Sequence record: PV295200.1
Origin: Escherichia phage vB_Eco_BCPEco_001
DNA: 64,000 bases
Reading direction: 5' to 3' (one strand)
Numbering within the stretch: position 1 is the first letter of the stretch; each line of letters starts with the position of its first letter. Both the position numbers and the translations under genes were made by a program. The notes beneath the pieces are model-generated. The model did no database searches and was not told the origin of the DNA. It saw nothing but the letters and a program-made list of their open reading frames with translations. Shown here piece by piece: positions 641-50,999 of this stretch.

Positions 641-2731
641 ATGATGGAACTCATTACAGAATTATTTGACGAAGATACTACTCTTCCGATTACAAACTTA
701 AATCCAAAGAAGAAAATACCACAAATTTTTTCAGTTCATGTTGATGATGCAATTGAACAACCAGGCTTTCGTTTATGTACCTATACATCTGGAGGTGATA
801 CTAATCGCGATTTAAAGATGGGCGATAAAATGATGCATATTGTTCCTTTTACATTAACTGCTAAAGGTTCAATTGCTAAATTGAAAGGTCTTGGTCCAAG
901 CCCAATTAATTATATCAATTCAGTTTTTACTGTTGCAATGCAAACAATGCGTCAATATAAAATTGATGCCTGTATGCTCCGTATTCTTAAGTCTAAAACC
1001 GCTGGTCAAGCTCGACAAATTCAAGTTATTGCTGATAGACTTATCCGTAGTCGTTCAGGTGGCAGATACGTCCTTCTTAAGGAACTCTGGGATTATGATA
1101 AAAAGTATGCATATATTCTTATACATCGCAAAAATGTATCACTAGAAGACATTCCAGGAGTTCCGGAAATTAGTACTGAGCTCTTTACTAAAGTTGAATC
1201 GAAGGTCGGTGATGTTTATATCAATAAAGATACTGGAGCTCAAGTAACTAAAAATGAGGCAATTGCAGCATCTATTGCACAAGAAAATGATAAACGTTCT
1301 GACCAAGCTGTAATTGTTAAAGTTAAAATTTCACGTAGAGCAATTGCGCAAAGTCAATCGTTAGAGTCTTCTAGATTTGAAAGTGAATTATTCCAGAAGT
1401 ATGAATCTACCGCAGCTAATTTCAATAAACCTGCTACCGCTCCTTTAATTCCCGAAGCAGAAGAAATGAAGCTTGGAATTAATTCATTAGCTTCTAAAAC
1501 TAAGGCAGCAAAAATTATTGCCGAAGGAACTGCGAATGAACTTCACTATGACTATAAATTCTTTTCAAAAAGTGAGGTTGATGAAGTTTCTGAAAAAATT
1601 AAAGATGTAATTCTTAACGCAATCAAAAATGAACCAACTACTTCAATAAAATGTTTAGAGAAATACGCAGCAGCTGTTAATAAATTCTTTGAAGAATATA
1701 AAGATAATTGGCTTGATAAACATAATAAAACTCGTAAAGGGCAACCAGATGAAGTCTGGGGAGAAATAACTAAAAATGCCTGGAATGCAGCAAAAACTAA
1801 ATTCCTCAAACGAATGATTTATAGTTTTTCTGGAATTGGTGCTGGTCCAATGATTGATATTACTATTGCCCGTGATGGTTCTAAATATACTCCATCACAA
1901 AAGCGCGGCATTAGAGAATATTGTGGCTCAGGATATACAGACATTAATAATCTTCTTTTAGGTCGTTACAATCCAGAACGATATGATGTAATGAGTGAAA
2001 AAGAAATTGAATCTGCTATAAATAATTTAGATTCAGCTTTTGAAAATGGTGACCGTATACCGGAAGGCATTACAGTTTATCGTGCTCAAAGTATGACTGC
2101 TCCTATATACGAAGCACTAGTTAAAAATAAAGTGTTCTATTTCAGAAATTTTGTATCTACTTCTTTAACTCCTATCATTTTTGGACGTTTTGGAATTACA
2201 CATGCTGGTATTGGTCTTTTAGAACCAGAAGCTCGCAATGAATTAACAGTTGATAAAAATGAAGAAGGAATAACTATTAATCCAAACGAAATAAGAGCGT
2301 ATAAAGAAAATCCTGAATACGTTAAAGTTCAAATAGGATGGGCAATTGATGGAGCTCATAAAGTTAATGTTGTATATCCAGGAAGTCTCGGAATAGCAAC
2401 AGAAGCTGAAGTTATTCTACCGCGCGGATTAATGGTTAAAGTTAATAAAATAACTGATGCTTCTAATAATGACGGAACAACATCTAATAATACAAAACTC
2501 ATTCAAGCTGAAGTTATGACCACAGAAGAACTCACCGAATCGGTAATCTATGACGGAGACCATTTAATGGAAACTGGTGAATTGGTTACAATGACAGGTG
2601 ATATAGAAGATAGAGTTGACTTTGCATCATTTGTTTCATCAAATGTTAAACAGAAAGTAGAATCATCTCTTGGAATTATTGCGTCTTGCATAGATATTAC
2701 AAACATGCCTTACAAGTTCGTTCAAGGATAA
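641..2731 (+). CDS. alt: Alt ADP-ribosyltransferase, packaged head protein (696 aa)
   Basis: N-terminus MELITELFDEDTTLPITNL matches recalled T4 Alt; C-terminal ART motifs (YR, FVSTSL STS motif, EAEVILPRG); late promoter TATAAATA 21 bp upstream. Confidence 0.9.
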   Translation: MMELITELFDEDTTLPITNLNPKKKIPQIFSVHVDDAIEQPGFRLCTYTSGGDTNRDLKMGDKMMHIVPFTLTAKGSIAKLKGLGPSPINYINSVFTVAMQTMRQYKIDACMLRILKSKTAGQARQIQVIADRLIRSRSGGRYVLLKELWDYDKKYAYILIHRKNVSLEDIPGVPEISTELFTKVESKVGDVYINKDTGAQVTKNEAIAASIAQENDKRSDQAVIVKVKISRRAIAQSQSLESSRFESELFQKYESTAANFNKPATAPLIPEAEEMKLGINSLASKTKAAKIIAEGTANELHYDYKFFSKSEVDEVSEKIKDVILNAIKNEPTTSIKCLEKYAAAVNKFFEEYKDNWLDKHNKTRKGQPDEVWGEITKNAWNAAKTKFLKRMIYSFSGIGAGPMIDITIARDGSKYTPSQKRGIREYCGSGYTDINNLLLGRYNPERYDVMSEKEIESAINNLDSAFENGDRIPEGITVYRAQSMTAPIYEALVKNKVFYFRNFVSTSLTPIIFGRFGITHAGIGLLEPEARNELTVDKNEEGITINPNEIRAYKENPEYVKVQIGWAIDGAHKVNVVYPGSLGIATEAEVILPRGLMVKVNKITDASNNDGTTSNNTKLIQAEVMTTEELTESVIYDGDHLMETGELVTMTGDIEDRVDFASFVSSNVKQKVESSLGIIASCIDITNMPYKFVQG

Positions 2732-2734
2732 ATC

Positions 2735-4792
2735 ATGGAACTTATTACAGAATTATTTGACGGCGCTTCGGCGCCGGTTGTTAACTTAAATCCTAAGCAT
2801 AAAATACCACAAATTTTTGCTATCCAAACCGGCGAAGAAAGCGTGCTTCCTGGATTTAGATTTTGTACATACACCTCTGGTGGTGATACGAATAAAAACG
2901 TTAAGCCAGGCGATAAAATGATGCATATCGTAATGATAGGTGTCAACGAGAAATTATCGCTGGTTAAGCTTAGAAACTTGGGTGGAAATCCAATTGGCGT
3001 CATTAATGCTGTTTTTGATACTGCTCTTCAAACAATGAAGCAGTATAAAATCGACGCATGCTTATTCCGCGTACTAAAAAGTAAAACAAATGGCGCAGCT
3101 CGTCAAATGCAAGTTATTGCTGACCGTTTAGTACGTACTAAAGGAGCAGGTCGATATGTTCTTTTAAAGGAAATCTGGGACTATGATAAAAAGTATGCAT
3201 ATATTATGGTTTACCGTAAAAATGCCAATTTAGAAGACATTCCAGGTGTACCTCCTATTTCAACTGAGTTATTCACAAAAGTTGAATCAAAGGTCGGTGA
3301 TGTTTATGTAGATGTTAAAACAGGTGATGCTGTTCCTAAAGCTGTCGCTGTTGCTGCTTCTATTGCTTTAGAAAATGATAAGCGCACGGATCAAGCTGTT
3401 ATTCAGAAAACTAAAATTAGTCGTCGATTAGCAGCACAAGCTCAATATTCTACTGTTGATGCTTCACTTCAGGGTGATAGCTTCGCTGCTAAGAAATATC
3501 AAGAGTTTGAATCTAAAGTTCCGGTATATAAAGCAGAAGGACCAATGAACTCTGGCGTTATTCAGATTGGTTCAAACTTCAACAAAGGAGCTATCGGTGG
3601 TATGAGAAGTGCTTCTCGTTTTAAATCTAGCGATTATGAACTAGAAAACTTCCGAAATCATATTGCATTAGCCCATGCACGTTTACGTGATCCATCTATC
3701 AAGTTGCAGAGCGATATAACATATCAAGGTTCTCAAGAATATTTAAAGAATAAAGAATTCTTTGATTATAAAACTGATAAAATTTTAAGCGATCTTGCTG
3801 ACATTAATATTTCTAATAGCTTTGATGTTATTAAGAAAATTATCAATGATTTGGTTAAAGGTTCTAATGCTACGCCAGATGAAAAGACAGCTATTATTCA
3901 ATTTGTCATGAATGGCATTTATAAATTGATTAATGAATCTGCTGCTCAGGCATATGAATATGCAAGTACTGAAGTAACTCCAAAAGGACTGACTCAGGCT
4001 GAGTCTGATGTAATTGAAGATTATTGTGCAGATTCATATGTTGAAATGAACTCGTTCCTTTTGGGTAAACCAGATTCTACCCGTGAAGAATATATGGAAC
4101 GAGCTATTAAGCACATCGAGACGTTGGATTCTGCCTTTGCCAAAGGATCAGTTCTTCCTCCAGGAACTACACTTTACCGTGGACAAGAAGTTACCTTTAA
4201 AACTTTGCGTCATAACATTGAAAACAAAATGTTCTATTTCAAGAACTTCGTATCCACATCGCTTAAACCAAATATCTTCGGTGAGCATGGTAAAAACTAT
4301 ATGGCTCTAGATGATTCCGGCGCAGTATTTTCTGGTGAAGGAGAAGGTTCCGTTGATGCAGAAGATTTGATGCATATGGGTAGTCATTCTACATATGCTA
4401 ATGAAGATGCTGAAACTAGCGTGGGTATGGTAATTAAAGGAGCTGAGCGAATCAAAGTTATCGTTCCAGGTCATTTATCAGGATTTCCATCAGAAGCTGA
4501 AGTTATTCTACCGCGTGGAATTTTACTGAAGATTAATAAAGTAAGTACGTACTTTATGAAAGAAACTGCTTATAACAAGTATCTAATCGAAGGTACAATC
4601 GTTCCTCCTTCTGAACAATTAGAAGAATCAGTATATGATGGCGACCATCTAATGGAAACTGGTGAAGTTCGTCCAATGGTTGGATTTAATCAATTCCTTG
4701 TAGAAGAATCAAAAGAAGAGGAAAACGAAGTTTCTCAAATCTTGGCTTCTTTGGTTAACATCAACGGAATGTCTAAAAAGTTCAAAATGTAG
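2735..4792 (+). CDS. Alt-family ADP-ribosyltransferase paralog (685 aa)
   Basis: Shares conserved N-terminal 230 aa and C-terminal ART motifs (TLYRGQ, FVSTSLKP, EAEVILPRG) with upstream alt; central region diverged. Confidence 0.85.
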   Translation: MELITELFDGASAPVVNLNPKHKIPQIFAIQTGEESVLPGFRFCTYTSGGDTNKNVKPGDKMMHIVMIGVNEKLSLVKLRNLGGNPIGVINAVFDTALQTMKQYKIDACLFRVLKSKTNGAARQMQVIADRLVRTKGAGRYVLLKEIWDYDKKYAYIMVYRKNANLEDIPGVPPISTELFTKVESKVGDVYVDVKTGDAVPKAVAVAASIALENDKRTDQAVIQKTKISRRLAAQAQYSTVDASLQGDSFAAKKYQEFESKVPVYKAEGPMNSGVIQIGSNFNKGAIGGMRSASRFKSSDYELENFRNHIALAHARLRDPSIKLQSDITYQGSQEYLKNKEFFDYKTDKILSDLADINISNSFDVIKKIINDLVKGSNATPDEKTAIIQFVMNGIYKLINESAAQAYEYASTEVTPKGLTQAESDVIEDYCADSYVEMNSFLLGKPDSTREEYMERAIKHIETLDSAFAKGSVLPPGTTLYRGQEVTFKTLRHNIENKMFYFKNFVSTSLKPNIFGEHGKNYMALDDSGAVFSGEGEGSVDAEDLMHMGSHSTYANEDAETSVGMVIKGAERIKVIVPGHLSGFPSEAEVILPRGILLKINKVSTYFMKETAYNKYLIEGTIVPPSEQLEESVYDGDHLMETGEVRPMVGFNQFLVEESKEEENEVSQILASLVNINGMSKKFKM

Positions 4793-11461: not shown

Positions 11462-12088
11462 ATGTATGAATACAAATTTGATGTGAGAGTTGGTTCTAAA
11501 ATAATCAATTGTCGCGCATTCACGCTTAAAGAATATCTAGAACTTATTACTGCCAAAAATAATGGTTCAGTAGAAGTAGTTGTTAAAAAGCTAATCAAAG
11601 ACTGCACAAATGCAAAAGATTTAAACCGCCAAGAATCAGAACTATTGTTGATTCATTTATGGGCACATTCTCTCGGTGAAGTTAATCACGAAAACTCCTG
11701 GAAGTGCACCTGTGGAACTGAAATACCAACCCATATAAATCTATTACATACGCAAATAGATGCACCAGAAGACCTCTGGTATACACTGGGTGACATTAAA
11801 ATTAAGTTCCATTACCCCAAAATTTTTGATGATAAAAATATAGCCCACATGATAGTATCATGTATAGAAACGATTCATGCTAACGGGGAAAGCATTCCAA
11901 TTGAAGACTTGAATGAAAAAGAGTTGGAAGATTTATATTCTATCATCACAGAGTCAGATATTGTAGCTATAAAAGATATGCTTTTAAAGCCTACTGTTTA
12001 TTTGGCTGTTCCAATTAAGTGTCCAGAGTGTGGAAAAACCCATGCTCACGTAATAAGAGGACTCAAAGAATTCTTTGAGCTATTGTAA
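11462..12088 (+). CDS. 26: baseplate hub protein gp26
   Basis: 208 aa, size and position match T4 gp26; late promoter upstream. Confidence 0.8.
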
Positions 12089-12486
12089 TGGCAAATATTA
12101 ATAAGCTTTATTCTGATATTGACCCAGAGATGAAAATGGATTGGAACAAAGACGTTTCAAGATCACTTGGATTAAGGTCAATTAAAAATAGTCTTTTAGG
12201 AATTATTACAACAAGAAAAGGTTCAAGACCGTTTGACCCTGAATTTGGATGCGATTTATCTGACCAACTTTTTGAGAATATGACTCCTCTTACTGCTGAC
12301 ACGGTTGAGCGTAATATCGAAAGCGCAGTAAGAAACTATGAGCCACGTATTGATAAATTAGCAGTTAATGTAATACCGGTTTATGATGATTATACTTTGA
12401 TAGTAGAAATACGCTTTTCAGTCATCGATAACCCTGATGATATTGAGCAGATAAAACTACAACTGGCTTCCAGTAATAGAGTATAA
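12088..12486 (+). CDS. 25: baseplate wedge protein gp25
   Basis: 132 aa, start overlaps gp26 stop (TAATG), size matches T4 gp25. Confidence 0.85.
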   Translation: MANINKLYSDIDPEMKMDWNKDVSRSLGLRSIKNSLLGIITTRKGSRPFDPEFGCDLSDQLFENMTPLTADTVERNIESAVRNYEPRIDKLAVNVIPVYDDYTLIVEIRFSVIDNPDDIEQIKLQLASSNRV

Positions 12487-12512
12487 TGCTTCACGTATAA
12501 ACGTGGTATAAT
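12485..12512 (+). promoter_or_regulatory. MotA-dependent middle promoter (uvsY)
   Basis: MotA box AATGCTTCA centred near -30 and TG-extended -10 TATAAT (12507-12512), 40 bp upstream of uvsY. Confidence 0.65.
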
Positions 12513-12552
12513 GAATCTAAGTCCATCCAATAACAATTGAATAGAGAACAAT

Positions 12553-12966
12553 ATGAGATTAGAAGATCTTCAAGAAGAATTGAAGAAAGATGTGTTTATA
12601 GATTCGACTAAATTACAGTATGAAGCAGCTAATAATGTGATGTTATATAGTAAATGGCTTAATAAGCATTCAAGTATTAAAAAGGAAATGCTTAGAATTG
12701 ATGCACAGAAAAAAGTTGCTCTTAAAGCTAAATTAGACTACTACTCGGGACGAGGAGATGGTGATGAATTTAGTATGGATCGTTACGAGAAATCAGAAAT
12801 GAAGACAGTTCTATCAGCTGATAAGGATGTTTTAAAGGTTGATACCTCGTTACAGTATTGGGGGATTTTATTAGATTTCTGTAGCGGAGCTCTTGATGCT
12901 ATTAAATCACGTGGATTTGCTATTAAGCATATTCAAGACATGCGAGCATTTGAGGCTGGAAAATAA
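12553..12966 (+). CDS. uvsY: recombination mediator UvsY
   Basis: 137 aa, matches T4 UvsY size; MotA-type middle promoter upstream. Confidence 0.9.
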   Translation: MRLEDLQEELKKDVFIDSTKLQYEAANNVMLYSKWLNKHSSIKKEMLRIDAQKKVALKAKLDYYSGRGDGDEFSMDRYEKSEMKTVLSADKDVLKVDTSLQYWGILLDFCSGALDAIKSRGFAIKHIQDMRAFEAGK

Positions 12967-13190
12967 TGAGATATAACATTGATGATGCTTTTAATTATGA
13001 AGAAGAATTTGAAACGGAAATTCAATTCTTAATGAAAAAGCATAATCTTAAGCGTCAGGATATTTGTATCCTGGCCGACCACCCGTGTGGTGAAGATGTC
13101 CTTTATATTAAAGGAAAATTTGCCGGATATCTTGATGAATATTTTTATTCTAAAGATATGGGCATTGATATGCATATGAGAGTTGTATAA
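12966..13190 (+). CDS. hypothetical protein uvsY.-1-like (74 aa)
   Basis: ORF immediately downstream of uvsY, start overlaps uvsY stop. Confidence 0.6.
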   Translation: MRYNIDDAFNYEEEFETEIQFLMKKHNLKRQDICILADHPCGEDVLYIKGKFAGYLDEYFYSKDMGIDMHMRVV

Positions 13191-13218
13191 ATAGATATAT
13201 AATTCAGAGGAGACAATC

Positions 13219-13386
13219 ATGTCAGATAAGATTTGTGTTGTCTGTAAAACTCCAATCGATTCTGCATTGGTTGTTGAAACAGACAAAGGTCCTGTACATC
13301 CTGGGCCTTGCTATAATTACATTAAAGAACTACCAGTTTCAGAAAGTTCGGAAGAACAATTAAATGAAACACAACTTTTGCTATAG
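13219..13386 (+). CDS. hypothetical small Cys-containing protein uvsY.-2-like (55 aa)
   Basis: ATG at 13219 with GAGGAG Shine-Dalgarno; translation MSDKICVVCKTPIDS...PGPCYNY; not in ORF track (below length cutoff). Confidence 0.5.
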   Translation: MSDKICVVCKTPIDSALVVETDKGPVHPGPCYNYIKELPVSESSEEQLNETQLLL

Positions 13387-13441
13387 TGTGACCTTTAGTC
13401 TATAGTTTTGGCCCTTCCTTTTTGGTTGGGCCTTTTTTAAT

Positions 13442-13684
13442 TTAAAAGCTTTCTTCTACTTCATCATCTGAATCTTCTAATTCAGCTCTTTTTCCTGCCA
13501 AAGCATCTCTCACAGAGATGTCATCAGTATCTTTTAATTCAGTTTCTTTGACTCTTTTCTTATAATAAGCTTCAAGTTCTTCTAAACCTTCTAATGTTTG
13601 ACAAGAGGCAATTTTACCCATAAATTCATCAATAGAAGCTTCATAAAGAAATTGTTTAAATTCTAGTAACATCTTTTTCTCCAA
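13442..13684 (-). CDS. uvsW.1: UvsW.1 small acidic protein
   Basis: 80 aa ORF directly downstream of uvsW on same strand, as in T4. Confidence 0.7.
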   Translation of the reverse strand: MEKKMLLEFKQFLYEASIDEFMGKIASCQTLEGLEELEAYYKKRVKETELKDTDDISVRDALAGKRAELEDSDDEVEESF

Positions 13685-13697
13685 AGGGCCGAAGCCC

Positions 13698-15209
13698 TTA
13701 TAAATTAACTGTTTTCATTACGTAATTAAATTTTTCATCTGCGTAGCGCTGAATACGATCAATGCCGTGTTTTAAAAGATAGTTCAAATGAACATATTTC
13801 TTTTTTGTATTAGCAGATTTTGGCTTAACACCGCAATCATCTATGAGGTCCCAGACTGTTGCTATTGTCTTAGAACCATGCTTACGTAATACACGACCGA
13901 TTGTTTGCAATACAATGATTTTTGATTTAACACCGTGCGCTAAAACAACGTGATGCAGATTTTTAACTGAAATACCAGTAGAAAATACACCATAACTAGC
14001 TACTATAATTATTCCTTTACCATTTTCAGCTAAGGTTTTCATTATATTGCGGGTTTCGGTATCAACTTCCCCTGATACGTAATAAACTTTATCGTATTCA
14101 TTTTTAATTAAATCGAAAATAGCTTTACCGTGCGATACATGTTTAAACATGACAAAAGCGTTTTCATCTTTTTGCGCAAGCTTAATAGCTAATTTAGCGA
14201 TCCATTTATTTCTTTTACTAAGCCCAGTAATAATTTTTATTTCTTCTTGGTAAGTTTTTCCCTTTAATTTAGTAGTGAACTCATCGGGATAGCGAAGAAA
14301 AATACTATTAATTTTTAGCTCAGTTACTTGTCCATCTTCCATTAATTTAGAAGTCGTTACTGGCTTAAATATTTCACCAAACATTCCAACATACTGCATG
14401 ATATTGGCTTTGCCATCACGTAATGAACCTGATAGACCAAATTTAAACATACAGTTATTTAATCCTGATATGATAGATGAAATACTTTTTCCTGTAGCAA
14501 GATGGCATTCATCATTCATCATCATTCCAAACTGTGAGAACCATTCTTTTGGTTGTTTAACTACAGTTTGCCATGTACCAACGACGACTGGTGCATCATT
14601 TTTATATTTATCATCTTTTGATGCTCCGCCACCGATTTTCTTTATCATTGCATGACTGAATAAACGATAATCAACAAAGTCATCAGCCATCTGAGTTGTC
14701 AGAGCAGTTGTTGGAACAATGATAAGAATTTTACCTTCATAATTTTCCAAATAATATCGCGCAAGCAAAGCTTGAATTAAAGATTTACCCGCAGATGTTG
14801 GAAGATTAAGAATTCTACGACGATTAACTAATCCTTCGAACACTGCATCTTTTTGATACCAGTGTGGTTCAATTCTTTTATTTCCTGAATAGATTTCTAA
14901 TTTAGAAAGCCATTCATCAAAATCTTTTCTTGATAATTCTTCTTTTTCGTTAATTTGCGGGTCAATCCAGGCTTTATAGCCAAAATTATCACAGAACTTT
15001 TTAATTTGCCCGACTAAGCCGAATGGAAGAAGACGATTATAATCTAAAAGACGGATTCGTCCATCCCAGTTGCCATATCTGAAGCGAGGATTAAACCTAT
15101 ATCCATCAGCTTCAAAGCTAAAGAAATCACGGAGTTCATGAAATGTACTTTCTTCACAATCAATTCTCACGTGACTAAAATCATAAAAATGTACTTTAAT
15201 GTCAGTCAT
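13698..15209 (-). CDS. uvsW: UvsW DNA/RNA helicase
   Basis: 503 aa, SF2 helicase motifs (PTSAGKS Walker A, DECH box), late promoter TATAAATA upstream. Confidence 0.9.
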   Translation of the reverse strand: MTDIKVHFYDFSHVRIDCEESTFHELRDFFSFEADGYRFNPRFRYGNWDGRIRLLDYNRLLPFGLVGQIKKFCDNFGYKAWIDPQINEKEELSRKDFDEWLSKLEIYSGNKRIEPHWYQKDAVFEGLVNRRRILNLPTSAGKSLIQALLARYYLENYEGKILIIVPTTALTTQMADDFVDYRLFSHAMIKKIGGGASKDDKYKNDAPVVVGTWQTVVKQPKEWFSQFGMMMNDECHLATGKSISSIISGLNNCMFKFGLSGSLRDGKANIMQYVGMFGEIFKPVTTSKLMEDGQVTELKINSIFLRYPDEFTTKLKGKTYQEEIKIITGLSKRNKWIAKLAIKLAQKDENAFVMFKHVSHGKAIFDLIKNEYDKVYYVSGEVDTETRNIMKTLAENGKGIIIVASYGVFSTGISVKNLHHVVLAHGVKSKIIVLQTIGRVLRKHGSKTIATVWDLIDDCGVKPKSANTKKKYVHLNYLLKHGIDRIQRYADEKFNYVMKTVNL

Positions 15210-15238
15210 GTCTAAATACCATGTAATAAATATATCTA

Positions 15239-15246
15239 TATTTATA
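15239..15246 (-). promoter_or_regulatory. late promoter TATAAATA (uvsW)
   Basis: Exact box on minus strand 30 bp upstream of uvsW ATG. Confidence 0.7.
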
Positions 15247-15259
15247 CTGAGGAAATATT

Positions 15260-15940
15260 ATGATAGATAAAGATTATATTGCAGAGCTGAAGGCTCTTGA
15301 TGATAACAAAGAAGCTAAAGCTAAATTAGCTGAATATGCTGAACAGTTTGGTATAAAGGTCAAAAAGAATAAATCTTTTGATAATATCGTTGTTGATATT
15401 GAAGAAGCCCTCCAGAAGCTCGCTAGTGAACCTATGCCGGAGACTGATGGGTTATCTATTAAAGACTTAATTGATGCTGCTGATGCTGCAGAGGGGTTAA
15501 AATATGACGATGAAGAAGTCAATCCAGAAGCAGCACTTCTGATTGATTCTCCGGTTAAATCTGACATTAAAATTGAAGTAGTAAAAACGGATAAAATTCC
15601 TGAAAATACCTCAGTTTTGATTGAAGATACTCCTTTTGTTGAAGAAAAATTCGAACAGGCTGTAGCTGAGATTATTGAATCTGAAAAGCCGTCTGTATTT
15701 ACTCTTCCGGAAAACTTTAGCCCAAATCTTCAGCTGATTGGAAAAAATCCAGGATTCTGTACTGTTCCTTGGTGGATTTATCAATGGATTGCTGAAACTC
15801 CGGATTGGAAATCTCACCCAACTAGTTTTGAACATGCGTCAGCACACCAAACTTTATTTAGCTTAATTTATTACATTAACCGTGACGGATCAGTTTTAAT
15901 TCGTGAAACACGCAACTCTTCTTTCGTAACATTAAAATAA
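15260..15940 (+). CDS. inh: Inh, inhibitor of prohead protease gp21
   Basis: 226 aa, size and position next to hoc match T4 inh. Confidence 0.8.
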   Translation: MIDKDYIAELKALDDNKEAKAKLAEYAEQFGIKVKKNKSFDNIVVDIEEALQKLASEPMPETDGLSIKDLIDAADAAEGLKYDDEEVNPEAALLIDSPVKSDIKIEVVKTDKIPENTSVLIEDTPFVEEKFEQAVAEIIESEKPSVFTLPENFSPNLQLIGKNPGFCTVPWWIYQWIAETPDWKSHPTSFEHASAHQTLFSLIYYINRDGSVLIRETRNSSFVTLK

Positions 15941-15949
15941 GGATAACTT

Positions 15950-17370
15950 ATGACTTTTACAGTTGATATAACTCCTAAAACACCGACAGGGGGTTATTGA
16001 TGAAACTAAGCAGTTTACTGCTACACCCAGTGGTGAAACTGGAGGCGGAACTATTACATATGCTTGGACTGTAGATGATGCTCCACAAGATGGAGCTGAA
16101 GCAACTTTTGATTATGTATTAAAAGGACCTGCTGGACAAAAGACTATTAAAGTAGTTGCAACAAATACAGTTCCAGATACTGATGCTGAAACAGCAGAAG
16201 CTACTACAACTATCACAGTTCAAAATAAGACACAAACGACTACCTTAGCTGTAACTCCTAATAGTCCTCCGGAAGGAGTAATCGGAACAGCTGTTGAATT
16301 TACCGCTGCCTTAGATTCGCAGCCACCTGGCGCATCTGCTACGTATCAATGGCACGTTGACGGTTCTCCTGCGGGCGAAGCAACTTCTGCTACATTCAAT
16401 TACACTCCTACCACAAGCGGAGTTAAAACAATTAAGTGTGTGGCTCAAGTAACCGCAACAGATTATGATGCAAAAGAAGTTACTTCTAATGAAGTGTCAC
16501 TGACTGTTAATAAAAAGACACAGACAACTACCTTAGCCGTAACTCCTGATAGTCCTTCAGCTGGAGTAATTGGAACCCCCAGTTCAATTTACTGCTGCCT
16601 TAGCTTCTCAACCAGTTGGAGCGTCTGCTACGTATCAGTGGTATGTAGATGATTCACAAGTTGGTGGAGAAACTAACTCTACATTTAGCTATACTCCAAC
16701 TACAAGTGGAGTAAAAAGAATTAAATGCGTAGCCCAAGTAACTGCTGAAAATTACAATGAAAAGGAAGTTACTTCTAATGAAGTATCATTAACGGTTAAT
16801 AAGAAGACAATGAATCCACAGGTTACATTGACTCCTCCTTCTATTAACGTGCAGCAAGATGCTTTGGCTACATTTACCGCTAATGTCACTGATGCTCCAG
16901 AAGAAGCGCAAATTGCGTATTCATGGAAGAAAGATTCTTCTCCTGTAGAAGGGTCAACTAATGTATATACCGTTGATACCTCATCTATTGGAAGTCAAAC
17001 TATTGAAGTTACTGCAACTGTTACTGCTGCTGATTATGATAGCAAAACTATTACGGCAGAAGGTCAAGTTCAGGTAACTGATAAAGTTGCTCCGGAACCA
17101 GAAGGTGAATTACCTTATGTTCATCCTCTTCCACACCGTAGCTCAGCTTACATCTGGTGTGGTTGGTGGGTTATGGATGAAATCCAAAAAATGACTGAAG
17201 AAGGTAAAGATTGGAAAACTGAAGATCCAGATAGTAAATACTACCTGCATCGTTACACTCTTCAGAAGATGATGAAAGACTATCCAGAAGTTGATGTCCA
17301 AGAATCACGTAATGGATACATCATTCATAAAACTGCTTTAGAAACTGGTATCATCTATACCTATCCATAA
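15950..17370 (+). pseudogene. hoc: hoc (highly immunogenic outer capsid protein) with extra Ig-like domain, interrupted by two +1 frameshifts
   Basis: Start MTFTVDITPKTPTG, C-terminus ...YIWCGWWVMDEIQKMTEEGKDW...GIIYTYP match recalled T4 Hoc; reading frame shifts at G5 run 15989-15993 and C5 run 16576-16580. Confidence 0.8.
16228..16803 (+). repeat. tandem 288-bp imperfect duplication encoding two Ig-like domains within hoc (16228-16515 and 16516-16803)
   Basis: Both copies encode KTQTTTLAVTP...YTPTTSGVK.IKCVAQVTA..Y...EVTSNEVSLTVNKK. Confidence 0.85.
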
Positions 17371-17376
17371 TCGTAA

Positions 17377-17396
17377 GGGGCTTCGGCCCCTTTCTT
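17377..17396 (+). terminator. hairpin terminator after hoc
   Basis: GGGGC-TTCG-GCCCC followed by TTTCTTCATTTT. Confidence 0.6.
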
Positions 17397-17459
17397 CATT
17401 TTGAAAGCATACAAAACACAACTTGAGATTGATGTATATAATGGCACCAACTCGATAAC

Positions 17460-17675
17460 ATGAGATTGATTATGAGAACTGAGGTTGTGGTGTTTACTCT
17501 TCATGAGTCTGGAAAGTCATTCATTGAAATTGCTCGTGAATTAAACTTACAGGCAAAGGAAGTGGCTGTATTATGGGCTCGAGCTATGACTGCTAAGAAT
17601 AAATTTGAAACTCGAGAAAAAGTTGTCTATAGAAAAAGACATATCAATAAAAAGGTGAAAAATGGAACAGTATGA
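17460..17675 (+). CDS. hypothetical protein (24.3-like, 71 aa)
   Basis: ORF between hoc and rnlB, position as T4 24.3. Confidence 0.5.
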   Translation: MRLIMRTEVVVFTLHESGKSFIEIARELNLQAKEVAVLWARAMTAKNKFETREKVVYRKRHINKKVKNGTV

Positions 17676-17940
17676 TCTTTATGAAAATGAATCTTTTGCT
17701 AATCAATTACGCGAAAAAGCATTCAAAAGTAAACAGTTTAAGCTAGAGTGTTTTATTAAAGATTTTTCAGAACTTGCTAATAAAGCAGCTGAACAAGGTA
17801 AAACATATTTTAGTTATTATTGTACTGCTCGCGATAAATTGATTACTGAAGAAATTGGTGATTGGTTGAGAAAAGAAGGATTTAATTTTAAAGTCAATAG
17901 TGATCAGCGTGATGGTGATTGGTTAGAAATTACATTTTGA
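17662..17940 (+). CDS. hypothetical protein (24.2-like, 92 aa)
   Basis: ORF immediately upstream of rnlB, position as T4 24.2. Confidence 0.5.
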   Translation: MEQYDLYENESFANQLREKAFKSKQFKLECFIKDFSELANKAAEQGKTYFSYYCTARDKLITEEIGDWLRKEGFNFKVNSDQRDGDWLEITF

Positions 17941-17949
17941 GGATTAATT

Positions 17950-18954
17950 ATGTTTAAAAAGTATAGCAGTCTTGAAAATCATTACAACTCTAAATTTATT
18001 GAAAAACTTTATAGCTTGGGATTGACTGGTGGGGAGTGGGTAGCTCGTGAAAAGATTCACGGCACAAATTTCTCATTGATTATTGAGCGTGATAAAGTAA
18101 CTTGCGCTAAACGTACTGGACCGATTCTTCCTGCTGAAGATTTCTTTGGGTATGAAATTATTCTAAAGAATTACGAAGATTCTATTAAAGCAGTACAAGA
18201 TATTATGGAAACCTCAGCGGTTGTATCTTATCAAGTCTTTGGCGAATTCGCTGGACCTGGCATTCAGAAGAATGTCGATTATGGCGATAAAGATTTTTAT
18301 GTATTTGACATTATTGTCACTACAGAAAGTGGTGATGTGACTTATGTCGATGATTATATGATGGAATCATTTTGTAATACATTTAAATTTAAAATGGCTC
18401 CACTTTTAGGTCGCGGTAAATTTGAAGAGCTTATTAAATTGCCAAATGATTTAGATTCTGTCGTCCAAGATTATAATTTTACAGTAGACCATGCCGGATT
18501 AGTTGATGCAAATAAATGCATTTGGAATGCCGAAGCAAAAGGCGAAGTATTTACCGCTGAAGGATATGTATTGAAACCTTGTTATCCTTCTTGGCTTCAT
18601 AATGGAAATCGTGTAGCCATCAAATGCAAGAATTCCAAATTTAGTGAAAAGAAAAAGTCTGATAAGCCTATTAAAGCTAAAGTTGAACTATCAGAAGCTG
18701 ATAACAAATTGGTGGGAATTTTAGCTTGCTACGTTACACTGAACCGAGTAAATAACGTTATTTCTAAAATTGGTGAAATTGGTCCGAAGGATTTTGGAAA
18801 GGTGATGGGACTAACTGTTCAAGATATTTTGGAAGAAACTTCTCGTGAAGGTATTACTCTAACTCAAGCAGATAATCCTTCTTTGGTTAAAAAGGAATTA
18901 GTTAAAATGGTACAAGATGTACTTCGTCCGGCTTGGATTGAATTGGTAAGTTAA
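17950..18954 (+). CDS. rnlB: RNA ligase 2
   Basis: 334 aa, nucleotidyltransferase motif I KIHGTN, size identical to T4 Rnl2. Confidence 0.9.
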
Positions 18955-18960
18955 ATAAAA

Positions 18961-18985
18961 AGGGACCGAAAGGTCCCTTTGTTTT
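18961..18985. terminator. bidirectional terminator between rnlB and gene 24
   Basis: AGGGACC-GAAA-GGTCCCT flanked by A-run and T-run. Confidence 0.65.
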
Positions 18986-20267
18986 ATTCATCAACGATAA
19001 TTTTTGGTAGCTTAACACCTAATAAAACAGACAAATCTGAACGACCCGCCATTTTATCCATGTCTCCACCATCAATTACTCTTGCTTCTTTTTCATCTTT
19101 TGCTACGGTGTAAGGATTTGCAGATAAAGCATATCTAACTAATAAACCGATAGATGGCTGCAAACTTTCTGGGTCAACTACAACTTTAAATGCACCTACA
19201 TGTTCAGGGTCATCTAAGTCAAGACCTTCTGTATACGGAGCATAGAAAATTGACCCAACAATTTCTTTTTCACCGATATTTTCTACTACGCCAACGATTA
19301 CATAATCTAATGGGCTGTTAGTATCGCAATAAAGCGGTAAACCATTAGCTAAGAACCCGTAGGCATTTTGTGAAAGATACTTATCATCTTCTGGTTTATG
19401 TTTTAACCAACCAGATGCAGCAAGAATCGCAGCGGCACGAGCTGAAGCAACACAGAACGTTGCCGTATAAGTTGATTCTTTTTGGATATGCGAAACCATT
19501 TCACATACCATTCGGTATAATGAACGACCAGCTTCAGGTGCAGATGCATAACTCAAATCAATGAATCCAGTATCAGTAATTCCTGTAACTTTATAACGTT
19601 TTGATACTGTAATCAAAGACTGCAGAATATCTTTATTGATTTCATCTGCCATTTCAGTTGCAAGCAAATCTTCCAAGAAATTAGGAGCATCGAATCCATT
19701 TGCTTCTAAATCTTGCGCTAATTCAACTGTGATACCAGTTTTAAGTTTACGAGATTTAACTGCGGTTTGCCATTTATTAATCTGGAATCTAGCATCCGCA
19801 ATTTCACTATCAGAGCTTTCAAATTTGCTTGTTGACGCTGCGTCAGAAAATAGACGAACCTTTAAAAGAACAATTGCAATCTGAAGAGCTAATTCTAAAT
19901 CGCTTTCTTCAATATCAGCAAATGGTGTATCTTCTAATACTTTATAAACGATATTATTATATTTGAATAAATCGCCCTTATTGAGAGTTAATTTAGACTC
20001 TTCTGTTAATTCTGTGATTTGTTCTCGGTCTACATATCCAGCTTCGCCAGCGTAAGTAGCACCAGTTTTAAATGTAAATTCGTTGTCTGGGTTAAGGTAT
20101 TTGATACCATAAAAAGCAGCAACAGGTTGATTAGTTCTTTGCGTTGCTACAATGTCAGAATATATTAATTTAGTGGTAGCGCGAGTCAAAGCAACGAGAT
20201 TTGGGCGACCGATTGAGTTGCTATTCGTTGTGGTTGATTCGCGCAGAAGTTCGTTGATTTTAGCCAT
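18984..20267 (-). CDS. 24: head vertex protein gp24
   Basis: 427 aa, gp23-like fold paralog, late promoter upstream, synteny next to 23. Confidence 0.9.
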   Translation of the reverse strand: MAKINELLRESTTTNSNSIGRPNLVALTRATTKLIYSDIVATQRTNQPVAAFYGIKYLNPDNEFTFKTGATYAGEAGYVDREQITELTEESKLTLNKGDLFKYNNIVYKVLEDTPFADIEESDLELALQIAIVLLKVRLFSDAASTSKFESSDSEIADARFQINKWQTAVKSRKLKTGITVELAQDLEANGFDAPNFLEDLLATEMADEINKDILQSLITVSKRYKVTGITDTGFIDLSYASAPEAGRSLYRMVCEMVSHIQKESTYTATFCVASARAAAILAASGWLKHKPEDDKYLSQNAYGFLANGLPLYCDTNSPLDYVIVGVVENIGEKEIVGSIFYAPYTEGLDLDDPEHVGAFKVVVDPESLQPSIGLLVRYALSANPYTVAKDEKEARVIDGGDMDKMAGRSDLSVLLGVKLPKIIVDE

Positions 20268-32254: not shown

Positions 32255-34765
<2,511 letters not shown>

Positions 34766-41173: not shown

Positions 41174-41183
41174 AAGAAAAAAA

Positions 41184-41201
41184 GGGAGCCCATGGGCTCC
41201 C
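41184..41201 (-). terminator. terminator after gene 8
   Basis: GGGAGCCC...GGGCTCCC hairpin followed by T-run on minus strand. Confidence 0.6.
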
Positions 41202-50404: not shown

Positions 50405-50978
50405 AAGATTTCTCCATTATACGTATAAGGTCGTTCATAAATGAATTGATGTCTGATTTTGCTATTATTTTTATTTGACGAAGTTTTTCATTTTCAAGAA
50501 CAGCAGCTTCATACGTATCGACCGCAGCAAGTGCTCCTTCATATTGAGGATATTTTCTAGCTTTATCGCCTTTGTCATACCAAACATATGGATTATCATC
50601 GTATGATATTAAATTATAAAATTTTTCACCGTTCTCATTCACATGATATACTATTTGGTCTCCACCTACGTTTTTGTATTTTTGTATAGATGCTTGATAA
50701 GCAGCTTCTTGCGAAGTAATCCATCCATAATACGGATCATAATTATCATTACACATCAATAAAACCCAATACAACTGCGGATTTCCATATATAGCATTTG
50801 CTAATTCTTCCGGGCGCGGTGAACCTTTAATATAATAAGTACGTAAGCGGTATCCCGCAAGAGCACGTTTGAAATAGTCTTTATAGTTTCTAAAAATATC
50901 TGTCATAGGAATAGTCGGCGCGTTTTTATTCACCGTTTTGGCCGCATATTCAATCGGATCAAAAAATGTAAAGAGCAT
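50388..50978 (-). CDS. 53: baseplate wedge protein gp53
   Basis: 196 aa, size identical to T4 gp53, late promoter upstream. Confidence 0.9.
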   Translation of the reverse strand: MLFTFFDPIEYAAKTVNKNAPTIPMTDIFRNYKDYFKRALAGYRLRTYYIKGSPRPEELANAIYGNPQLYWVLLMCNDNYDPYYGWITSQEAAYQASIQKYKNVGGDQIVYHVNENGEKFYNLISYDDNPYVWYDKGDKARKYPQYEGALAAVDTYEAAVLENEKLRQIKIIAKSDINSFMNDLIRIMEKSYGNDK

Positions 50979-50991
50979 GGGCCCTCCTGTT

Positions 50992-50999
50992 TATAAATA
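50992..50999 (+). promoter_or_regulatory. late promoter TATAAATA (gene 4)
   Basis: Exact box 27 bp upstream of gp4 ATG. Confidence 0.7.

Follow-up and report, generated by a model that had tools for sequence, protein, structure and literature searches.

In T4-like phages, the hoc gene encodes a decoration protein, the highly immunogenic outer capsid protein, located at the centres of the gp23 hexamers; Hoc functions in adherence to mucus and epithelium and is a dominant antigen. The protein is non-essential, and HAP1, a spontaneous hoc nonsense mutant of T4, is viable and has a capsid without Hoc (PMC10580926). Variation in the number of Ig domains among Hoc homologues has already been published (PMC10385173, PMC11853027), with homologues of 1 to 10 Ig domains described (PMC10385173) and a functional two-Ig Hoc reported from a Tequatrovirus (PMC11853027). 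Among the Tequatroviruses, the SHFML-11 lineage is used in commercial therapeutic cocktails, and a 2026 paper describes the SHFML-11-like cocktail phage 6phi13 (PMC13600099). Here, we analysed the hoc locus in a 64,000-nt stretch of DNA from Escherichia phage vB_Eco_BCPEco_001 (PV295200.1), which we refer to as the window.

Identity and reading frames of the hoc locus

The former hoc coding region spans 1421 nt of the plus strand (15950-17370), which corresponds to 1419 nt plus two inserted bases. It directly follows the inh ORF (15260-15940), and a Shine-Dalgarno-like TAAGGA read from the sequence (15938-15943, plus strand) lies upstream of the hoc ATG, overlapping the inh stop codon. Directly after the hoc stop codon there is a strong intrinsic-terminator-like hairpin, AAGGGGC-TTCG-GCCCCTT, with a T tract (17375-17402, plus strand). 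The gene order inh-hoc-24.3-24.2-rnlB-gene 24 is the one annotated in SHFML-11, PST and VEc74, placing this gene where hoc is expected, and Pfam labels in Logan contig L010 and in the relative L012 agree with the same order around hoc.

Three reading frames are needed to cross the gene. From the native start, the first frame segment (15950-16000, plus strand) comprises 16 codons, MTFTVDITPKTPTGGY, and then TGA at 15998-16000, the frame being lost at a G5 run (15989-15993, plus strand) at codon 14-15, where intact alleles have G4. Past this run, the +1 frame is open as far as 16652, with no ATG, GTG or TTG before 16440 in the ORF list. A C5 run at codon 208-209 (16576-16580, plus strand), where intact alleles have C4, is the second +1 frameshift, and the third frame ends at TAA 17368-17370 with the protein end ...GIIYTYP. 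The longest remaining ORF (16570-17370, plus strand) encodes 266 aa from a TTG start, comprising part of the second Ig-like domain (D2), the third (D3) and the C-terminal domain, and is the one that automatic gene callers pick. Deletion of one G and one C gave an ORF of 1419 nt and exactly 472 aa, 96 aa beyond T4 Hoc. A sequence-only reading made earlier had described the stop after 16 codons due to the G5 run, the second shift at the C5 run and the single 472-aa frame after repair, and each was confirmed. These lesions, like the repeat described below, are deterministic sequence features rather than statistical ones. A functional hoc has an uninterrupted full-length ORF; since here the ORF is interrupted twice, by the stop after 16 codons and the second frameshift at 16576-16580, the locus was filed as a hoc pseudogene.

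The repaired protein was aligned to T4 Hoc (376 aa, from the PDB) with phmmer, a check that the sequence-only reading had named, and proved collinear (E = 2e-218). T4 residues 1-106 matched residues 1-106, and T4 residues 93-376 matched residues 189-472, so the excess is one 96-aa unit. The alignment covers residues 93-376 of the T4 chain nearly identically, including the capsid-binding C-terminus. In addition, the repaired protein is 97% identical to an intact Hoc (P0009). Consistent with a string of Ig-like or PKD-like domains, Pfam PKD matched residues 195-267 with 31.5 bits (cut-off 23.5), while matches to Ig_3 (residues 289-355), PKD_4 and Ig_2 were all below their cut-offs.

The identity of the repaired protein to T4 Hoc D1, D2 and D3 was also followed domain by domain, all on the plus strand. 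Ig-like domain 1 (15950-16226; repaired residues 1-92) aligns to T4 Hoc 1-92. Two tandem repeat copies follow, both matching T4 Hoc 93-188: copy 1 (16227-16514; residues 93-188; 77/96 identical) is an additional D2-type Ig-like domain, and copy 2 (16515-16803; residues 189-284; 87/96 identical) is the orthologue of T4 domain 2 and has the extra C inside it. Ig-like domain 3 (16804-17079; residues 285-376) corresponds by alignment to T4 residues 189-280. The domain at the C-terminus that binds the capsid (17080-17367) is equivalent to T4 Hoc residues 281-376, its boundary being taken from PMC10385173. The T4 alignment, the domains and the gene order together support the original assignment of this gene as hoc.

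Copy number of the tandem Ig-like unit

Tandem Repeats Finder reported one array in hoc, at 16227-16809, with a period of 289 (the extra C included), 2.0 copies and 77% matches. When set in codon register (16227-16514 and 16515-16803), the two copies share 77.1% nucleotide and 78% amino acid identity (75/96), and other offsets gave only about 26-40% nucleotide identity. Between the copies, 33 codons differ synonymously and 21 non-synonymously, which argues that the duplication is old and that both domains were kept under selection. The sequence-only reading had described a diverged 288-bp tandem duplication encoding an extra Ig-like domain; that description stands, but its coordinates (16228-16515 and 16516-16803) are one base off.

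The extended Ig array had also been called unusual, and this claim failed against the outcome set beforehand as its test, since four Ig domains are standard in the lineage. The closest relatives of the window hoc all have the four-Ig, 1419/1420-nt form. Among 60 matching phage records, evenly spaced down the ranking, 19 were four-Ig (1418-1425 nt), about 30 were three-Ig (1131 nt) and 2 were two-Ig (852 nt); the 852-nt genes, in phage records KIT06 and PNJ-9, encode two Ig domains in all. A larger count, by which the 594 of 682 records that have at least 80% of the query covered would be four-Ig, was rejected as inflated because three-Ig genes reach 100% coverage from two BLAST pieces. At the protein level, the best 120 clusters (90% identity) comprised 81 of about 376 aa, 30 of about 472 aa and 9 of about 568 aa. 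The 472-aa class includes clusters with 167, 72, 68 and 58 members, and the proteins of 568-570 aa (P0001-P0008 and P0093) have three tandem D2-type units. These data indicate that the lineage is polymorphic for the copy number (one, two or three) of one 288-bp D2 unit, a pattern that unequal recombination between tandem repeats would be expected to give. Judged by these counts, the four-Ig Hoc is a common variant of this phage group and not a novelty.

Distribution of the two frameshifts

The G5 run is common, base for base, to Shigella phage SHFML-11, Salmonella phage BCPSen_003, Shigella phage BCPShso_001 and Yersinia phage PST, which were deposited separately between 2013 and 2025, and a contig assembled from raw reads, Logan L010, has it too. 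Overall, G5 was found in 6 of 587 matching records; the other ~580 align over 90 nt and not 91, meaning that they have G4 and an uninterrupted ORF, and the intact relative L012 likewise has G4. The backgrounds that carry G5 are diverse, with 66 hoc differences between PST and the window, a three-Ig hoc in BCPShso_001 and four-Ig genes in other carriers. An exact-pattern search of IMG/VR for the G5 and G4 alleles gave two matches only, both G4, and the same search of JGI metagenome contigs gave no matches, too few to gauge the allele's frequency in nature. The recurrence of G5 in separate deposits, diverse backgrounds and a Logan contig indicates that it is real and inherited. The shared run could alternatively reflect recurrent mutation at a hot spot and not common descent, which would alter the history and leave the pseudogene call unaffected.

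C5 has a much narrower distribution, being absent from all deposited phage records matching hoc, of which the best in the INPHARED release searched matched the window hoc at 99.9%. An exact copy of the 266-aa product, for which C5 and a Ser-to-Leu substitution in Ig domain 3 (T at 16865, plus strand, where relatives have C) are both needed, was found in Logan assemblies alone, in four contigs from runs ERR15500949 and ERR15500950. Over 1845 nt, contig L011 matches the window at 100% identity, and contig L010 is the same as the window over 13570-19379, G5 and C5 included, with 13 differences in gene 24. As L010 is distinct in gene 24, the double-frameshift allele is present in at least two distinguishable genomes. 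The two runs have consecutive accessions and could share a study or even a phage stock with the window; in either case, an assembler artefact would still be excluded, but a platform-specific read error would not.

The 13 differences between the window and L010 are clustered in 600 bp of gene 24, which encodes the vertex protein (19380-19977), and the flanking 5.8 kb are identical. At least at an indel pair at 19834/19836, L010 differs from the window in the same way as SHFML-11 does. This segment looks like a short recombination patch.

The sequence-only reading had left open whether the gene has decayed as a dispensable one or whether the assembly has homopolymer errors. If the extra bases were sequencing or assembly errors, the phage would have an intact 472-aa hoc. 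Each lesion is indeed a +1 change in a homopolymer of 5 bases, an error for which 454, Ion Torrent and Nanopore data are well known, the C run is one base short in phage ZCEC14, which may mark an error-prone site, and no deposited phage record has C5. However, a Logan contig and four other genomes, each deposited separately, also have G5, and C5 recurs in k-mer-based Logan assemblies of two runs, with one contig from a distinguishable genome. The 100% identity of Logan contigs to the window over kilobases also implies accurate reads. Furthermore, the window has many homopolymers of at least 5 bases, yet across the alignment with SHFML-11 (about 61 kb, about 98.4% identity) the only unpaired indels with lengths not a multiple of three were at 16580 in hoc and at 41182 and 50987, the latter two being intergenic, so that the only unpaired coding indel is the one in hoc. 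A search of the same ~61 kb alignment for homopolymer errors throughout the genome showed no such signature. Finally, other phages have nonsense codons in hoc, which homopolymer errors cannot give. On this evidence, C5 appears to be real and an intact hoc hidden by sequencing errors is very unlikely. Thus, of the two parts of the earlier either-or statement, decay is well supported over assembly error, through G5 in the four other genomes, C5 in the Logan contigs and the lack of a general homopolymer-indel problem in the window.

Several further differences from SHFML-11 were observed in the window. At 41176-41200, an extra AA is present in an A-run adjoining the palindrome GGGAGCCCATGGGCTCCC, and at 50975-50995 there is one C fewer in CATGGGCCCTCC; the ORFs on either side of both length differences are convergent or divergent, and the differences probably fall in hairpins of a terminator or regulatory type. 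The only large segment missing in SHFML-11 (33030-33856) is filled by a 270-aa ORF with an HNH-type motif (33027-33839, minus strand), which resembles a mobile homing endonuclease inserted between neck genes. At 641-4792 (plus strand), the window encodes two Alt-like ADP-ribosyltransferase paralogues in tandem, of 696 and 685 aa, and a stretch of ~950 bp in the first (1451-2407) has no SHFML-11 alignment at megablast level, which suggests mosaic replacement.

Over 11996-19379 (7384 bp), the window is the same as SHFML-11 but for two positions, and both are in the 1421-bp hoc. These are the C insertion and T16865 (Ser to Leu), each of which alters the protein. The chance of both differences in this block landing in hoc is about 0.04, a figure based on two events only. 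BCPShso_001, another G5 carrier, has a second frameshift of its own, a 1-nt deletion near the C-terminus. Second lesions of this kind in G5 carriers are expected once the first lesion had removed selection.

Visible hoc disruption extends beyond the G5 carriers. We examined related loci (L013-L018 and L007) and the IMG/VR contig L037. In ZCEC14, one C is lost (C4 to C3) from the run that is C5 in the window. FriedrichMiescher has another G4 to G5 change, and its authors annotated the gene as 'Hoc part 1 / part 2'. UPWr_E2 and PM105 have A-run indels in the SGVK(K/R)IK motif, and UFV09 and SCS4 have plain nonsense codons. Among about 52 evenly sampled records with the full hoc span, 5 (about 10%) were visibly disrupted, and in IMG/VR 1 of 21 hoc loci (L037) was clearly frameshifted, in a small sample that includes many isolate genomes. 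The gene has been broken independently in several other isolates. The figure of about 10% is a modest but usable pointer to weak constraint during isolation and propagation.

SHFML-11-type phages occur in ShigaShield and Sextaphag-type cocktails, and prolonged production culture might relax or even reverse selection on Hoc. Taken further, hoc might be a recurrent and possibly adaptive loss target in Tequatroviruses propagated for therapy or in the laboratory, with short runs as mutational hot spots. If so, the G4 at codon 14, the C4 at codon 208 and the A-runs of SGVK(K/R)IK would be sites that switch off an immunogenic capsid fibre, and Hoc-less virions would be selected, through yield, reduced aggregation or escape from anti-Hoc antibodies, and not merely tolerated. 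We put this forward as a speculative and rather doubtful extension of the data.

Predicted loss of Hoc and comparison with known alleles

An interrupted frame could still yield Hoc if it were recoded. By this account, +1 ribosomal slippage at GGG-G and CCC-C, or a suppressor tRNA, would produce full-length Hoc, in amounts that might be low and regulated. The Salmonella tRNA-Gly and tRNA-Pro frameshift suppressors, sufD and sufA/B, classically act at GGGG and CCCC, and the phage encodes its own tRNA-Gly(UCC) and tRNA-Pro(UGG). The P-site tRNA could re-pair perfectly or almost perfectly in +1 at both sites (GGG to GGG; CCC to CCA), and slipping at both would restore the exact wild-type amino acid sequence. 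However, ARAGORN cloverleaves show that both phage tRNAs have ordinary 7-nt anticodon loops, CUUCCAA (Gly) and UUUGGGA (Pro), and not the 8-nt loops of a frameshift-suppressor tRNA, which was rejected for that reason. A programmed +1 frameshift was also rejected, as programmed sites are conserved and these are not: G5 occurs in 6 of the 587 matching records (~580 have G4), and C5 in none. Neither run has a stop or rare codon immediately 3′ of it; the codons that follow are GGU-UAU and AGU-UCA, with the stop two codons past the G run. On reading the sequence, no stimulatory element and no Shine-Dalgarno-like stimulator was evident upstream of either run. With two slips in succession, each of low efficiency, hardly any protein would be made, whereas Hoc is needed at 155 copies per head, and the further disabling lesions gained by G5 lineages are unexpected if the downstream frame were still used. 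Together, these points make recoding barely conceivable. A phase-variable homopolymer locus was considered and rejected as well, because the runs are only 4-5 nt long (7 nt or more are typically needed), length variants (G4/G5; C3/C4/C5) are seldom seen in several hundred records, and lineages in the off state gain further lesions.

Another way to retain function would be an N-terminally truncated Hoc made from an internal start (TTG 16570, 266 aa, or ATG 16810, 186 aa) that decorates the capsid with a short fibre. Between 16570 and the native stop there is no interruption in the third frame, which takes in Ig domain 3 and all of the capsid-binding domain. Gene callers predict the 266-aa ORF, and RefSeq has an analogous 309-aa internal-start CDS in SHFML-11 and PST. 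Functional Hoc proteins that are naturally short, with one or two Ig domains, are also known (PMC11853027, PMC10385173). Against this, the initiation contexts are poor, the TTG having GGAG only 3 nt upstream and ATG 16810 having only AAGAAG, so substantial internal initiation is unlikely as judged from these Shine-Dalgarno contexts. In addition, both starts lie within former coding sequence, where initiation was never under selection, the 266-aa product would start partway through an Ig domain and leave an unfolded stub, and the Ser-to-Leu change falls within this ORF, consistent with lost constraint. We therefore consider a functional short Hoc improbable.

Instead, the window, from a Tequatrovirus of the SHFML-11 lineage, likely carries a genuine hoc pseudogene, inactivated stepwise by two slippage-type insertions and giving no full-length Hoc. 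The first and older step would be the expansion of G4 to G5 at codon 14-15, now present in at least five phages. The later step would comprise the expansion of C4 to C5 at codon 208-209 together with the Ser-to-Leu substitution, both appearing specific to the window's sub-lineage. Both insertions are single-base expansions of short homopolymers and belong to the strand-slippage class of frameshift mutation. As translation from the native start is predicted to end after 16 codons, full-length Hoc would not be made. The virions would then probably be without Hoc fibres, and the phage would stay viable because Hoc is non-essential. We infer the order of the lesions, the absence of the protein and relaxed selection as their cause from the patterns described above.

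The locus should be annotated as a hoc pseudogene and not as a 266-aa 'capsid and scaffold protein'. Given the roles of Hoc in adherence and antigenicity, a Hoc-less therapeutic-type SHFML-11 phage may differ from its Hoc-bearing relatives in gut retention, aggregation and immunogenicity.

Compared with T4 Hoc (376 aa; PDB 5vf3, 8t1x, 8t9r and others), the window gene is the same and occupies the same place, with inh on one side and 24.3/rnlB/gene 24 on the other. It differs in having two tandem D2-type units where T4 has one (472 versus 376 aa) and in a frame that is interrupted twice, from which the protein is not expected to be made. The intact Tequatrovirus alleles of ~472 aa (VEc74 QOI68360.1; P0009, with 167 members; P0010; and the wV7/Sf21-type of 474 aa) share the four-Ig architecture and are 93-97% identical in amino acid sequence to the repaired window protein, and the L012 allele, also intact, matches the window over its 5′ 290 nt in all but the extra G. 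The runs of these intact alleles are G4 and C4, in contrast to the G5 and C5 of the window, and one reading frame stays open throughout. The hoc genes of SHFML-11 and BCPSen_003 are only two positions apart from that of the window. These two and the PST gene have the same G5 frameshift at codon 14-15 and are annotated only as a 309-aa internal-start fragment, but they have C4 and Ser at the 16865 position where the window has C5 and Leu.

The nearest described event is that in T4 HAP1 (T4 delta-Hoc, C496T), a spontaneous hoc null that is viable and has a Hoc-less capsid (PMC10580926). HAP1 was selected in the laboratory and has one nonsense codon in a three-Ig gene, whereas the window has two frameshifts in a four-Ig allele from a circulating or production lineage. 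The window hoc is a new allele of a known type of event, the loss of a non-essential decoration gene.
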